A DNA stretch of 64,000 nt from Candidatus Poribacteria bacterium (lineage in GTDB: Bacteria > Poribacteria > WGA-4E > PCPOR2b): contig OZ242351.1 in NCBI GenBank assembly GCA_965208675.1, forward strand, positions 896,001 through 960,000. Reading direction: 5' to 3'. Positions 5,813 through 11,582 of the stretch are shown one piece after another (positions within the stretch are counted from its first letter, which is position 1; every line of letters starts with the position of its first letter). A model generated the notes under the pieces. It saw only the letters and a program-made list of their open reading frames with translations, searched no databases and was not told the DNA's origin. Position numbers and translations under genes: made by a program.

Positions 5813-7027
5813 TTATTCCCCGAGATGTTGTATTTCCGGATTTTTCAAAACTACTGGCGGATTTTCACCCCGCGTTCGCCACGCTGTCAATCTATCTTCA
5901 AAAATCGTCATTACGATGATTCCCATTCCAATCGCTCCTATAGTAATATTCGGCAACCAAATCGAAAATGCGGGCGGCAGCGTGCCATTTTCTCCAGCCT
6001 CCTGCCCGAACTGCAAAATCAGATAGTAAAACAGAATCAGTGTCATCCCTATTCCTGCCCCGACCATTTTGCCGCTTCGTTTCACTATCAACCCTAGCGG
6101 CACGCCAATTAAACCGAAAACAAAACACGCAAACGGGATTGAAAACCTCTTCTGATACTCTACCCGTGCCTTCCTTGACTTATCTATTATTAAGTCTGAA
6201 CTGTTCACCTGCGAAAGACGGCTTTCAAGTTTATTCACGTGGGCTCTGAGCTTTTCCATCGACATGGTCCGAGGACTTTCAAATTCTTGTTTCGTACGTT
6301 CCACTGTCTCGCTCAAATCGAGTGCGATTCGATGTTCAGCAAACGATGTCAGCCGGAAACCGTTAGGTGAAGAGGGAATAGGTTCATAGGTTAAGCCGTC
6401 GTAGAGTTTTAACCAAGCCTGACCGTTTTCAATCTCAATGTCCCCTCCAGTTGCATGGATAAAACGAGGCTGCCCCGACCAAATTGAATCCCACACCTTA
6501 ACGTCTTGCAGCCTATCCGTGTTTGAGGCTGTCGATTCGTACATCCAGAGTTTTCCCTCCCGTTCCAACTCCTTCATGATCACACCCTCTTCTAACACAA
6601 AAGCTGGATTCTGCCTGTTTATATCGCGCTTTAACGAAGCATAAGCCACATTGCCGCGGGGCAAAGCGTAGTCCATGAAGAAAAAATCAAAAACGCCAAT
6701 TAAGCTTGCAACGACCAACAGCGGCAAAAGGATTTGATGAAATCCAATTCCGTGCGATTTCATAGCGGCAATCTCATTGTCTGTCGAGAGTCTTCCCAAG
6801 GCAAGCAGGATTCCAACGAGGGTTGCCATTGGGATAGTCAAGACTAGTATCACCGGCAAGACATAAATCAGCAGTTCAATCAGATAACCGAGGTTGATTC
6901 CCTTTTCTACAAAGCGTTTTGTGAGTCGGAAAATTTCGTCAAGTAACAGGATGGAAGTAAAACAGAGTAGCGCAAGAAAGAAGGGTGGGAAGAACTCTTT
7001 TAGTGCGTATCTAGTTAAAATTTTCAA
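5813..7027 (-). CDS. lptF: LPS export ABC transporter permease LptF
   Basis: KILTRYALKE, LGRLSTDNEIAAMKSHG, KRFSIPFAC, WLPN motifs; TTG start. Confidence 0.85.
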   Translation of the reverse strand: MKILTRYALKEFFPPFFLALLCFTSILLLDEIFRLTKRFVEKGINLGYLIELLIYVLPVILVLTIPMATLVGILLALGRLSTDNEIAAMKSHGIGFHQILLPLLVVASLIGVFDFFFMDYALPRGNVAYASLKRDINRQNPAFVLEEGVIMKELEREGKLWMYESTASNTDRLQDVKVWDSIWSGQPRFIHATGGDIEIENGQAWLKLYDGLTYEPIPSSPNGFRLTSFAEHRIALDLSETVERTKQEFESPRTMSMEKLRAHVNKLESRLSQVNSSDLIIDKSRKARVEYQKRFSIPFACFVFGLIGVPLGLIVKRSGKMVGAGIGMTLILFYYLILQFGQEAGENGTLPPAFSIWLPNITIGAIGMGIIVMTIFEDRLTAWRTRGENPPVVLKNPEIQHLGE

Positions 7028-7736
7028 GCCTATAAAACTCCGATTGCCTGCACAATGTACATCATATTGTTGGTTTATTTTACACCACGCAAGTCAATAT
7101 ATGCAAGATATTAGTTGCTACGCAAAAGTTGAATCTTCAGTTACACAACACCTTTGACCGTCAACGAGAAATTTCCCGCGTCCCTTTCTACTGAGTCATC
7201 TTGTTCCAGACGTAAAATCATGTGCGCACATTTGCCAATTGCATTTTAAGTCTAACGCCTTTTCACTGCACAACGCACGTTTCGCATCCATCCATGCCGG
7301 CGAGAAAAACCATTTGGCCCAACAACGGCTCTAGCACATAATTTTCAAACAGGAATTAAAGCAATGCACTATCTGCGAGAAAATTCTCTCTTATAGGCGG
7401 AATTTTCGCTAAAAGTGCATCCGAATCTGTGTTGCAGTAAACGACTGTAAAATTGTCTTCTCAACAGCATTTATACAAATAATATACGTCGCGCAATCAT
7501 CCATGACAGCGAGAAATACAATTACCTCGTCGCCCATGCATGAATCCCACTTTAACACGGACGCGGCGGTGACAAAAATTTACCAATATGCGTTTTTGGG
7601 GTTAATTTCGTTGTGCAATTGCTAACATCTACAATGGACAAACAAAACAGCTAGGATATTACCCAATGCGAGAGGCTTTGGACCTTACGGCAACGGGAAA
7701 GGTTTGATGCAACTCACGTATCATCAGGAGAATGAA

Positions 7737-10147
7737 ATGAGAATGGATTTAAATAATGTGCTTCAACGTTCAACGAGCGTACGGGTAGAAGCCCACTGGG
7801 AACCGATTGCGGATTCTTCGTTTAATCTGCATAACGAATATCGTGAGCACGCTGGGTTATTCGATCTGTCTCCAATCTACCCCACCAAAAAATATGAGCC
7901 GGACGCGTTTAAAGCGTTTCTTCCCTCCCGGCCGATGTTGGTAGGTGATGTATGGGAGCTCGACTCCGAGGGAGTTGTTCAGTTCCTTCGCCAATTCCAC
8001 TCTGGAGCGACGATGAAACTACATCATGGCACGGAAGGCGCCTACGCGTGCCTTCGCGCGCTTTCGTCAAAATATGCGGAAATTACATTTCGCATTCATG
8101 CAGATTTTGCCTTATCGAGTATCGCGTATGAAAATTGGCGGCGGGACAATTCGTTGAAGGAGGATGAGGGCAAAGCCCGCTTTATCCCATCACAATTTGC
8201 AGGGCGATTGGTAGTCAACCTTAAAGAGAGGACGGTTAGAGCGTTTTCACTTGCGTTGCCGCCCCGCAATAGCAACGTAGACATCAACGCCTACGGCGGC
8301 GCTGATATGGTTTTAGTACCGCGTATGGAACTCGTCGGTGCTAACGCCAATGACCAGTGTGAAATTGCGTGGGACACTAACATCACTGAGGATGAAGCGC
8401 GCAGGGCGTTGGAGTTGAAGTTCTACAAGTTCGCTGAAATTGAATGGCGGCCGGTTGAAGAAGCGGTTAAACTTGCTGTGGAAACGGGTCGTCCGATCCA
8501 TGCAATCCTTGTCTGGGGGGCGTTGGACGACGAATCATGCTGAGCGAACGGCAAACAATTGAGGGCGGGTCCGCTCTCCAATTCAGAAGTGATAAAGACG
8601 CTCAACCAGAAGTTCGTCAATACTTGGGTGTTCCTACGAGAGTTGCCGGAACTAATAGGCGGCGCGAGAGGGGAAGGTGCGAGCCGCGTCGTGGCAAAAC
8701 TACAACAGCATTACTCCGATTCGGTAGATATATTGATGCTGTCTTCAGAAGCAGAGGTGCTGGCACATCAGCCGGAGATGGCGCTTCCTTACAGGGGCAG
8801 GACAGAAGCTTACTTAAAGTTCCTCAATCGAACTTTAGAATCCTTTGAAGGAAGATATTTCTCAAAATTAGATGCAAAACCCATCAGATTGGGGAGGAAG
8901 TTTAAGAGCCTGTTTGAAAAAGAAAAAAGATGTCTGAACGGTTGATGTTTACGTTTACTCACTGGAGCAGTTGATTCCGAACCAATGAAGGGAGTAAACA
9001 TGAACCGAAAACGTTATCCTAGTGATTTGACCGATGTACAATGGCAGAAACTGTCAGCGTTTCTGCCAACCCCTCAACCATTAGGTAGACCTCTAAAATG
9101 GGAGATGTACTTAATTGTCCATGCCATCTTTTATGTCGTCAAGTCCGGTTGCCAGTGGCGAATGCTACCATACGATATGCCACCGTGGCAAACCGTCTAT
9201 TACCATTTTAGGAAGTGGGAAGCCGACAATACATGGCTCTTGATTCATCAGGCACTTCACGAACAATCACGCTGTGATGGTGGCAAAGAACCATCACCGA
9301 CAGCAGCTATCATTGACAGCCAATCCATTAAGACAACTGAACTGGCGACGACTCGCGGTTTTGATGGTCACAAGAAGGTCAAAGGACGCAAACGACATCT
9401 AGTAACGGATACGACGGGTATTCCATTGATGGTCAAAGTCACTGACGCGAATGTCAGTGATAATCAGATTGCTATCGAGTTACTAACAGAAGTGTTTAGC
9501 TGGTACATAACCATTCAGTTGGTGTGTGCCGATGCCGCCTATCGTGGAGAATTGGAAGACTGGTTATATTTTGCTCATCAATGTCAACTGGAGATTGCAT
9601 CTACGCTAGGACGGGAGAAGTTTGAAGTTATCCCGTTACGATGGATTGTTGAGCGCACATTTTCTTGGCTTGGTTGGTTTCGTCGATTGACTTTGGATTA
9701 TGAACGCTATCCTAGGACTGCTGAGACTATGGTGTACATCGCTTCCATTTACTTAATGCAAAATCGAATCAAATGACTTTTCAAACAGGCTCTAAGGAGG
9801 TACTGTATGTTTTTCGCTCCTCGGGCACGCCAGATTACACGATTGTCGACATTGACACAACCTCTTTTGAACACGACGGGATACTCTACATAGAGATACA
9901 GGTCGGTGGGGGCGAGGCAGCAGGGACGTTTGAATTGTTCGATGGTGACACGGAACTTGTTACAGATGAATCTCCTGATGAAGCCCTGACTGGAGCGTGG
10001 AATATCCCGCCCGGAGGAACTGGACACATTATGTACGGCTTCAAACGGGGGCAGCGTTTTAAGTTGACTGCTGCCGGGGGTATATCAACCAAGGCGGGGT
10101 GCATCAACGCATTTATTGCGCATATTTATGTGGTCAACGAGGCGTGA
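7737..10147 (+). CDS. Selenoprotein N (SELENON)-like selenoprotein, Sec at TGA 8541-8543, interrupted near the C-terminus by IS5 (8906-9792)
   Basis: AGGAG RBS before ATG 7737; ORFs 7704-8543 and 8559-8945 share a frame across a single TGA; HAILVWGALDDESC-U-ANGKQLR matches the SELENON active-site region as recalled ([22 protein letters not shown]); removing IS plus one TSD fuses ...GRKFK to EVLYVF... in frame (~506 aa). Confidence 0.88.
8557..8583 (+). promoter_or_regulatory. Putative bacterial SECIS element
   Basis: Hairpin AATTG-AGGGCG [GGTC] CGCTCT-C-CAATT; apical loop starts 24 nt after the in-frame UGA and begins with GG, like the GGUC loop of the E. coli fdhF SECIS. Confidence 0.75.
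8906..9792 (+). mobile_element. IS5-family insertion sequence (IS1031-like subgroup), 887 bp
   Basis: Perfect 15-bp TIRs GAGCCTGTTTGAAAA (8906-8920) / TTTTCAAACAGGCTC (9778-9792); 3-bp TSD TAA (8903-8905, 9793-9795). Confidence 0.95.
9000..9776 (+). CDS. IS5-family DDE transposase, intact single ORF
   Basis: YPSDLTDVQW, GCQWRMLP, AIIDSQSIK, GRKRHLVTD, ADAAY, RWIVERTFSWL motifs; GGAG RBS before ATG 9000. Confidence 0.95.
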   Translation: MNRKRYPSDLTDVQWQKLSAFLPTPQPLGRPLKWEMYLIVHAIFYVVKSGCQWRMLPYDMPPWQTVYYHFRKWEADNTWLLIHQALHEQSRCDGGKEPSPTAAIIDSQSIKTTELATTRGFDGHKKVKGRKRHLVTDTTGIPLMVKVTDANVSDNQIAIELLTEVFSWYITIQLVCADAAYRGELEDWLYFAHQCQLEIASTLGREKFEVIPLRWIVERTFSWLGWFRRLTLDYERYPRTAETMVYIASIYLMQNRIK

Positions 10148-10313: not shown

Positions 10314-11582
10314 TTAATTCAACGACTGCAATACATCAAAGTAAGTCGGGAAGGTTTTGTTGACGCAACTAGGATTTTTTATTCGAATACCCGGCACTTT
10401 CAACCCAATCAGAGAGAAACTCATGGCGATTCGGTGGTCGTTATACGTGTCAATTGCCGCAGGCGTAATCCTCGACGGAGAAATTTCGACACCGTCCTTA
10501 CCCTCGACAACTTTCACACCCAGTTTTCGTAGTTCTGTGACCGTGGCGTGAATGCGGTCTGATTCTTGCCAGCGAGTATGCCCAATATTGCGAATGCCCA
10601 CTTTGCTGGCGGCGAAAGGAGCGATTGCAGCCAACGTGGGCCAAGTGTCCGAAATTGCGTTCATGTCTATATCTATCCCCTTAAGCTGCTTAGCTCCAAT
10701 TACTTCACACCCACCACGTTTCCAATTGACCTGGCACCCCATTTTTTCCAGCACATCTACGAAATGCACATCTCCCTGAACAGAGTCCGAATTGAGGTTA
10801 TCTACTTGGACGCGGCCGCCTGTGAGCGCAGCGGCTGCAAAGAAGTAGGATGCGCTTGAGGCATCTGGCTCAATTAAAAATTCGCAGGCTTGATACTTCT
10901 GCCTACCTTCGATGAGGTAGGACCGATAGTTGTCGTGGGTCACAGTCACACCAAACGCCTTCATTACGGACAGCGTGATGTCAATATACGGCGTTTTAAT
11001 TTTGTCAGTGATTTCGACCTCTATACCTTTTTTTGTATATGGTGCAACGAGCATTAGCGATGTCAAGAACTGGCTACTTTTATTTGTATTCAGTCGGGAT
11101 TTTCCACCCTCAAATCCATTTGCATTGACAATGGCAGGAAGAAATCCGTTGTCGTATACTGAGCGCACATCAACGCCGAGTTGCCGCAGCGCATCCAGCA
11201 GATTAGCGATCGGACGGGTGCGGCGCATGGGTTCGTCGCCATCAATGACGAAATTGCCTTTCCCGAGCGCAACATAACTCACAAGTGACCGCGATGTCGT
11301 TCCGGAATTGCCGACGTAGAGTTCAGCGTGATTGACAGGGATTTTACCGCCGTTGCCAGCAACCCAAAATGTACACCGATCTTCGTTCGCCTCGATCTCT
11401 ACCCCCAGTTCTCGCAGGGCGATGCACATGTAACGGGTGTCATCGCTGAAAAGCGCCCCTGTCAGCTGAGAACGGCCTTCAGCGAGCGCAGCAACCAACA
11501 GCGCCCGGTTTGTGAAACTCTTGGAACCGGGAATTGCGACTGCGGCATCAATTGCGCTCTTAACGGGTTGAATCTCGATCAT
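10314..11582 (-). CDS. aroA: 3-phosphoshikimate 1-carboxyvinyltransferase (EPSP synthase)
   Basis: PGSKSFTNRAL, GNSGTTSR, SSQFLTSL, ESDRI, DHRIAMSF, KTFPTYF motifs. Confidence 0.95.
   Translation of the reverse strand: MIEIQPVKSAIDAAVAIPGSKSFTNRALLVAALAEGRSQLTGALFSDDTRYMCIALRELGVEIEANEDRCTFWVAGNGGKIPVNHAELYVGNSGTTSRSLVSYVALGKGNFVIDGDEPMRRTRPIANLLDALRQLGVDVRSVYDNGFLPAIVNANGFEGGKSRLNTNKSSQFLTSLMLVAPYTKKGIEVEITDKIKTPYIDITLSVMKAFGVTVTHDNYRSYLIEGRQKYQACEFLIEPDASSASYFFAAAALTGGRVQVDNLNSDSVQGDVHFVDVLEKMGCQVNWKRGGCEVIGAKQLKGIDIDMNAISDTWPTLAAIAPFAASKVGIRNIGHTRWQESDRIHATVTELRKLGVKVVEGKDGVEISPSRITPAAIDTYNDHRIAMSFSLIGLKVPGIRIKNPSCVNKTFPTYFDVLQSLN

Follow-up and report, generated by a model that had tools for sequence, protein, structure and literature searches.

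A probable bacterial SECIS element in a selenoprotein N homologue of a poribacterial sponge symbiont

Can an in-frame UGA codon be read as selenocysteine (Sec) in a bacterial gene whose product resembles an animal selenoprotein, and which signal would direct its decoding? We asked this of a locus within a 64,000-nucleotide stretch of the genome of a Candidatus Poribacteria bacterium (assembly GCA_965208675.1, contig OZ242351.1, positions 896,001 to 960,000; hereafter the window, with position 1 as its first letter). An earlier note, made from the letters alone, had described there a bacterial-type selenocysteine insertion sequence (SECIS) hairpin inside a eukaryote-type selenoprotein gene. In our analysis, the hairpin at positions 8561–8578 of the + strand is very probably (roughly 0.87) a bacterial SECIS in a bacterial homologue of selenoprotein N of a sponge symbiont. 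As an RNA element it is an ordinary bacterial SECIS; the gene family that carries it is noteworthy.

The gene as now read occupies positions 7737–8945 of the + strand, as judged from the open reading frame (ORF), its read-through translation and homology to animal selenoprotein N (SELENON). The frame runs from 7704 to a TGA at 8541–8543 and is then open until 8945. The ATG at 7737, with AGGAG 7 nt upstream, is the probable start, because a paralog elsewhere in the genome (L018) has stops just upstream of MRMDLNN; the bacterial protein would then begin approximately 20 residues ahead of the conserved core. The read-through product has 402 codons, of which Sec is codon 269, and its stop codon (8943–8945) lies within an inserted insertion sequence (IS). 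Around the UGA the translation reads …VWGALDDESC-U-ANGKQLRAGPLSN…, and in a longer extract …IHAILVWGALDDESC-U-ANGKQLRAGPLSNSEVIKTLNQKFVNTW…, so that Sec directly follows a cysteine (S-C-U-A); the motif is SCUA in the window copy and SCUG in paralogs. Homologues keep the TGA, and animal SELENON has its Sec at the aligned position.

The conserved hairpin core consists of a 5′ arm GAGGGCG (8561–8567), a loop GGTC (8568–8571) and a 3′ arm CGCTCTC (8572–8578), giving a 7-bp stem that begins 17 nt past the UGA. The earlier note had placed a stem closing a GGTC loop 24 nt after the UGA, and both the sequence positions and the minimum free energy (MFE) fold agree with this: the hairpin is the MFE structure of the 60 nt following the UGA (−12.7 kcal/mol), and its core is retained when a 141-nt context is folded. 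The longer stem claimed at the same time, AATTG-AGGGCG/CGCTCT-C-CAATT, stood only in part. Its core is conserved in the family; in the window copy the hairpin does extend to 8557–8583, with AATT at 8557–8560 pairing with AATT at 8580–8583 and C8579 bulged, but this lower part is not conserved among relatives. The AATT stem was therefore rejected from the conserved element: among 79 distinct sequences 52.8% of its cells are paired, a value that 7 of 500 shuffles reach and that lies close to their mean of 49.3%, and it gives no covariation signal.

The bacterial SECIS consensus of Zhang and Gladyshev, in the summary given in PMC13188914, has a loop of 3–9 nt, an upper stem of 4–16 bp, a G in the first two loop positions that is mostly followed by G or U, and a distance of 16–37 nt from the UGA, with an MFE of −7.5 kcal/mol or lower. 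The window hairpin lies within all four limits, having a 4-nt loop of sequence GGUC, a 7-bp stem, a distance of 24 nt and a bare hairpin energy of −9.8 kcal/mol. The same is true of 115 of 141 related sites when the energy of the bare stem is used, and the other 26 fall outside the energy limit only (−4.9 to −7.4 kcal/mol). In its general features the hairpin is thus like known bacterial elements: it lies within the ORF just 3′ of the UGA and has a small apical loop with an early G followed by G or U, in a genome that contains selB. The loop GGUC is also that of Escherichia coli fdhF, and it resembles the GGUCU loop of an FdhA-like gene in the same genome.

The evidence that carries this reading comes from relatives. 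Of 176 genomes of the phylum searched in six frames, 131 contained the gene, representing 10 of 31 genera, and the matches per genome reached 13 or 14 in two such searches. The gene belongs to a large paralogous family in Poribacteria. Among the matches listed, all but 2 had the in-frame TGA in the first search and all had it in the second. The window's own genome holds five copies, three of them in tandem. For the analysis of conservation we extracted 141 distinct Sec-site contexts from 110 loci. The Sec-site codon was TGA in 140 of these and TGG in one, and the preceding codon encoded cysteine in all 141. Every site could form a hairpin with a loop of 4–6 nt, a stem of at least 5 bp and a UGA-to-loop spacing of 22–24 nt, and 140 of 141 kept at least six contiguous pairs; loss of the hairpin in UGA-containing homologues had been named as one finding that would overturn the bacterial SECIS. 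RNAalifold over the relatives returned only the hairpin stem, and no other conserved structure was seen in the 66 nt after the UGA.

The stem is kept in more than one register. In the register of the window copy (register 0), 67 sites had 7 bp closing a GGUC loop, two had 7 bp with a CGUG loop and seven had 6 bp with a hexaloop starting AG or GG, while a single copy (at locus L077) had an internal C·U mismatch and the hexaloop CGGGUC. In a register shifted by 2, 6-bp stems closed the loop AGGU at 50 sites and AGUU at 14. A single pairing register for the whole family was consequently rejected in favor of three forms: two with a tetraloop, of which one has 7 bp and the other 6 bp in the register shifted by 2, and a 6-bp form with a hexaloop. 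Paralog groups encoding other peptides at this place (RAVALS, RTGVLS) retain the stem in the shifted register. We worked from ungapped alignments of 83 (A1) and 73 (A3) sequences, and loop column 28 is G in all 83 sequences of A1.

Covariation across homologues, proposed in the earlier note as a check, was borne out in both groups of paralogs. In register 0 (79 distinct rows), 93.7% of cells are paired and three pairs have changed on both sides, giving a covariation score of 0.144 against 0.114 for shuffled alignments; none of 500 shuffles reached the observed score. The changes include G21–C38 to C–G, C26–G33 to U–G and then U–A, and the alternation of G24·U35 with A–U. The second group (73 sequences, 68 distinct rows) was picked by peptide and not by pairing. 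In this group 96.6% of cells are paired and 18 are doubly changed, with a score of 0.226 against 0.172 and again none of 500 shuffles reaching it; when the partners were slid by 1–3 columns, only 44–82% of cells paired. Some of the compensatory changes are synonymous: among 64 group-2 sites selected by pairing, the paired Ala or Val codon ends in U in 17 of 17 cases where Arg is encoded by AGA, and in C (33) or U (14) where it is encoded by AGG; A or G never occurs at this four-fold degenerate third position. Other changes alter the protein. A G–C pair becomes G·U and then A–U through Ala to Thr together with Ala to Val, and in one lineage the outer pair turns from G–C to C–G through Leu to Phe together with Ser to Cys, the stem being preserved. 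This last paired change supports the suggestion in the earlier note that residues after Sec are constrained by the RNA structure; because the signal lies within the coding sequence, the codons of L-R-A-G-P-L-S would serve both protein and RNA.

The genome, a single contig (C1) of 4.89 Mb, encodes the machinery needed to use such a signal. The genes selA and selB and the tRNA-Sec gene are contiguous at C1:2131409-2134883 on the − strand (595.6, 367.5 and 77.5 bits, respectively; selB at 2,131,577–2,133,469), and selD lies at C1:4649539-4650462, also on the − strand (375.8 bits), and is itself a selenoprotein gene with its own in-frame TGA (…KCAG-U-ASKL…). Co-occurrence of the family with selB was dropped as a test since selB is present in 167 of the 176 genomes of the phylum and does not discriminate; the four genomes that bear the selenoprotein N homologue and gave no selB match are 81–83% complete. 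When the genome was scanned in a simple way for TGAs that adjoin a Cys codon in an open frame and are accompanied by a qualifying hairpin, 14 sites emerged, three of which were checked against Pfam: an FdhA-like molybdopterin oxidoreductase (C1:1611772, − strand; 7-bp stem, loop GGUCU at 18 nt), an AhpC/Redoxin lipoprotein-like protein with U-G-P-C (C1:4351517, + strand; loop GGU at 17 nt) and a DUF3179 protein with W-U-P-L-C (C1:4075205, + strand; loop CGUGU at 20 nt). As other selenoprotein genes carry similar hairpins, that of the window fits the organism's own repertoire. The agreement with the consensus, the compensatory changes and the presence of selA, selB, tRNA-Sec and selD together support the assignment to the bacterial type.

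The element would act as follows. With the UGA at 8541–8543 in the ribosomal A site, SelB carrying Sec-tRNA(Sec) would dock through its C-terminal domain onto the hairpin, which starts 17 nt downstream. Sec would then be inserted in place of termination, and the thioredoxin-like domain would gain a Cys–Sec redox pair in its active-site position. Both SelB binding and Sec insertion are predicted here from sequence.

Several observations weigh against this reading. In dinucleotide shuffles, the hairpin is ordinary (z = −0.39), with 62 of 200 shuffled sequences folding at least as well, and among random in-frame sites in the long ORFs of the genome 129 of 4,000 pass SECIS-type limits and 51 of 4,000 are equally strong (approximately 1–3%). 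No Rfam family matched the hairpin: an E-value scan of 7600–9100 gave four chance-level matches to unrelated families (E 1.5–9.2, all under the gathering scores), with no SECIS family among them. The E. coli element, in the passages of PMC8659212 that describe it, is a 17-nt hairpin (nt 15–31) that begins 11 nt after the UGA; U17 is bulged, and of the loop only G23/U24 are named. The window hairpin starts 17 nt after the UGA, 6 nt further than in E. coli fdhF, and has no bulged U in the 5′ arm; the loop G–U is present but at nt 29–30. By this analogy the hairpin appears to work like the fdhF element without being of its exact type. For the selD gene of the same genome, the candidate hairpin is weaker and of a different kind, and selD was dropped as a within-genome comparison. 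The one relative with TGG at the Sec site (L056, G025:C1:2214800-2216200, site 934–936) has an intact hairpin, and a metagenomic full-length protein (P0173) likewise reads SCWG; the TGG may reflect a Sec codon lost recently, a variant that is tolerated or a mistake in the assembly. Finally, the compared sequences are related paralogs and orthologs of one phylum, and only two or three pairs per register are doubly changed, so that the cell counts overstate the number of independent events.

The random pass rate of 1–3% and the ordinary shuffle score mean that the case rests on comparison. The relevant null is one of coding constraint, in which the same peptide is recoded synonymously with the genome's own codon usage (from 1,106 long ORFs). 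Such recodings have a mean energy of −4.3 ± 2.3 kcal/mol against −11.1 kcal/mol observed, and 0.8% of 5,000 fold as well. By thermodynamics alone the hairpin is unremarkable; under the coding-constraint null and in comparison with its relatives it stands out.

The description of the gene as eukaryote-type also held. A profile of 31 read-through bacterial members (A2), searched against 1.84 billion representatives, gave 761 matches at E ≤ 1e-3 and 199 at E ≤ 1e-30. We looked up the identities of 10 of the 150 listed matches: six are unnamed metagenomic proteins and four are animal proteins, namely a hagfish "Selenoprotein N" (2.7e-41), a wombat EF-hand protein (1.4e-51) and proteins of Nematostella (6.7e-51) and a jellyfish (1.4e-46). 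The animal sequences read …WGALDDQSC[..]SGRTLRE…FISTW. In BLASTP comparisons the window protein was 31% identical to animal sequences over 249 columns (1e-32) and 30% over 255 columns (2e-29), with the Sec sites aligned. The bacterial profile matching animal selenoprotein N at E 1e-41 to 1e-51 and the aligned Sec sites thus support the description. Searches of Pfam and NCBIfam with the read-through protein gave no match, EF-hand included, and neither did a sequence search of the PDB.

An AlphaFold2 model built on A2 (pLDDT 89.9, pTM 0.86) predicts an N-terminal beta domain and a thioredoxin-like domain that spans the TGA, with C-U located between strand 241–246 and helix 260–264. The top Foldseek matches in the PDB were DsbH-type, thioredoxin, UAS (UBXD7) and ERp19/AGR chains; no solved selenoprotein N structure appeared among the Foldseek PDB results or in the PDB sequence search. 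The bacterial protein thus shares with animal SELENON homologous N-terminal beta and thioredoxin-like domains and a Cys–Sec pair at the same site (SCUA/SCUG), preceded by WGALDD; SCUG is the Cys–Sec redox motif of SELENON, with Sec at the matching site, in the part of PMC12839072 that treats it. Unlike animal SELENON, the bacterial protein has no EF-hand match in Pfam, no endoplasmic reticulum membrane anchor seen by eye (inspection gave no hydrophobic N-terminus or transmembrane anchor) and no eukaryote-type SECIS in the Rfam scan of 7600–9100. In many members of the bacterial family the chain is extended by an extra C-terminal domain of approximately 120 residues. In place of the SBP2/EFSec decoding of animal SELENON, bacterial decoding would use SelB. 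Vertebrates are not known to have more than one SELENON gene, against up to 14 matches per genome in the bacterial family. Compared with the AhpC/Prx-like and DsbA/Trx-like UxxC selenoproteins, the family similarly places Sec at the redox position, where helix 1 of a thioredoxin-like fold begins, with a SECIS downstream, but differs in its adjacent C-U (not UxxC or CxxU), its large N-terminal beta domain and the absence of a Pfam or NCBIfam model. A full-length Cys form also exists (P0179, 668 aa, SCCGSGK), from a G+C-rich organism, and its N-terminal region resembles an ECF (extracytoplasmic function) sigma factor.

Among the alternatives, the one that survives best concerns the window copy only and not the nature of the element: the copy may be a relic inactivated by the IS, with the intact paralog L018 at 2,542,661–2,543,872 doing the work. 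The IS is an 889-bp element of the IS5/IS4 family on the + strand (8905–9793), with perfect 16-nt terminal inverted repeats (8905–8920 and 9778–9793), probably flanked by a TAA duplication, and a DDE transposase encoded by an ORF at 8985–9776 (Pfam DDE_Tnp_1, PF01609, and DUF4096, PF13340). It is present in multiple copies, eight of them near-full at 99.55–100% identity, and contigs from two sponge-metagenome runs (two studies) join 8902 to 9793 without it. The near-identical copies and the empty site in related strains indicate that the insertion is recent and strain-specific. The frame of the gene now terminates 13 codons into the IS, and the severed 3′ part (9794–10147, + strand), which encodes a C-terminal domain of approximately 117 residues (KEVLYVFRSSGTPDYTIVDID…VVNEA, stop), is colinear with L018: the IS parts …RLGRKF from KEVLYVFRSSGTPDYTIVDID…, and L018, which is 79% identical and uninterrupted, reads both as one chain (…LGKKLKEVLHVFRASETPDYTIVDID…). 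The cut locus may therefore make a truncated protein or none, which counts against a working product. On the other hand, the UGA, the hairpin and the reading frame ahead of the insertion are undamaged, and a truncated product might still work because paralogs of 377–400 residues naturally lack the C-terminal domain. We consider a relic possible, though rather unlikely. The C-terminal domain itself (approximately 120 residues, …DYTIVDIDTTSFEHDG…GGG…FKL…NAF…) is conserved in L018 and L021 and is present in some paralogs and not in others; the severed domain matched no Pfam family.

A second alternative accepts the hairpin as functional and denies it to SelB: it would stimulate redefinition of the UGA as a physical or pausing element, and SelB would bind at another site or require none. 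Animal SELENON offers a precedent. The earlier note had stated that animal SELENON relies on a SECIS in the 3′ untranslated region (3′-UTR); this stands for the SECIS itself but not as sole reliance since, as described in parts of PMC12936836, PMC3541580 and PMC8584023, a hairpin directly after the UGA of SELENON mRNA, the selenocysteine redefinition element (SRE), aids Sec insertion, and PMC12936836 likens it to the bacterial SECIS in one passage. The patient mutations in the SRE, as far as they are named in passages of PMC3541580 (see also PMC8584023 and PMC12839072), include G463V, R466Q and R469W/Q, with Sec at 462. By our BLASTP alignment and the numbering of PMC3541580, human R469 corresponds to the Arg whose codon (8562–8564) sits in the 5′ arm of the window hairpin. 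The two hairpins thus follow the UGA directly within coding sequence and overlie homologous codons, the same Arg codon included. The organism, however, has a bacterial SelB, a factor that depends on an mRNA hairpin close behind the UGA in the bacteria studied; the window hairpin agrees with the bacterial consensus and is the only conserved structure seen in the 66 nt after the UGA; and the other selenoprotein genes of the genome have similar hairpins at 17–20 nt. We hence consider action without SelB binding improbable.

The shared position of the hairpins raises the question of their origin. From sequence it is conceivable, but doubtful, that the bacterial hairpin and the animal SRE are the same element by descent, the gene having moved from bacteria to the animal lineage or the other way. 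Under shared descent, a 3′-UTR SECIS would have taken over decoding and left the bacterial-type SECIS in place with the role of a redefinition enhancer, or the reverse, and SELENON would be a living intermediate between two modes of Sec decoding. With a bacterial SECIS over the same codons as the SRE, the origin of the latter becomes testable.

The hairpin could instead merely follow from codon bias and the conservation of a peptide, and have no function as RNA. The peptide LRAGPLS is indeed strongly conserved (54 of 69 group-1 sites), its codons are G+C-rich and the dinucleotide shuffles gave an ordinary score. Yet synonymous recodings reach at least six contiguous pairs in 18.4% of 2,820 cases against 140 of the 141 distinct homologous sites; the four-fold degenerate position is limited to pairing bases and tracks its partner, as in the A with U combinations; and paired amino acid changes keep the stem, as do the groups with other peptides in their shifted register. 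This explanation, already disfavored, is very improbable. Least of all does the TGA seem a true stop separating two genes (ORFs 7704–8543 and 8559–8945), as gene callers split the family (the 120 best of 588 relatives from a protein search, all of 264–292 aa, end at the TGA, and the part downstream of the Sec site is recorded as a separate protein of 227–278 aa in 50 of 51 matches): this is refuted for practical purposes by one thioredoxin-like fold spanning the TGA, by the frame and TGA kept in 140 of 141 sites, by full-length forms with Cys (SCCGSGK) or Trp, and by Sec at the same place in animal SELENON, as stated in part of PMC12839072.

Selenoprotein N is a human (muscle) disease protein whose chemistry is poorly understood and which is usually treated as an animal protein. 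The bacterial family offers a system for studying its Cys–Sec site, and the members that gene callers cut in two are mis-annotated genes to be corrected. In the library that we searched, no description of a bacterial selenoprotein N was found, and a term search of the main text of reviews of prokaryotic selenoproteomes did not return the name selenoprotein N, although supplements may use other names. By this measure, a Sec-containing selenoprotein N family spread over most genomes of one phylum has gone unnamed in those reviews.

The tandem paralogs of the window's own genome (L018–L020, C1:2539504-2543872) have one TGA each, and similar tandem arrays occur in many relatives, with up to three sites per 4-kb locus (e.g., L113, L110 and L122). 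Some paralogs have two in-frame TGAs within the match (e.g., G136:C44:502850-504076 and G132:C60:3385-4506), which may represent a second Sec site or a match read past the true stop. A related-locus search of the genome contigs gave no confirmed relative. No obvious operon partner lies beside the selenoprotein gene; by eye, from the translations only, its neighbors on the − strand are a LptF/LptG-like permease ORF (5813–7027) and an EPSP-synthase-like (aroA) ORF (10314–11582).

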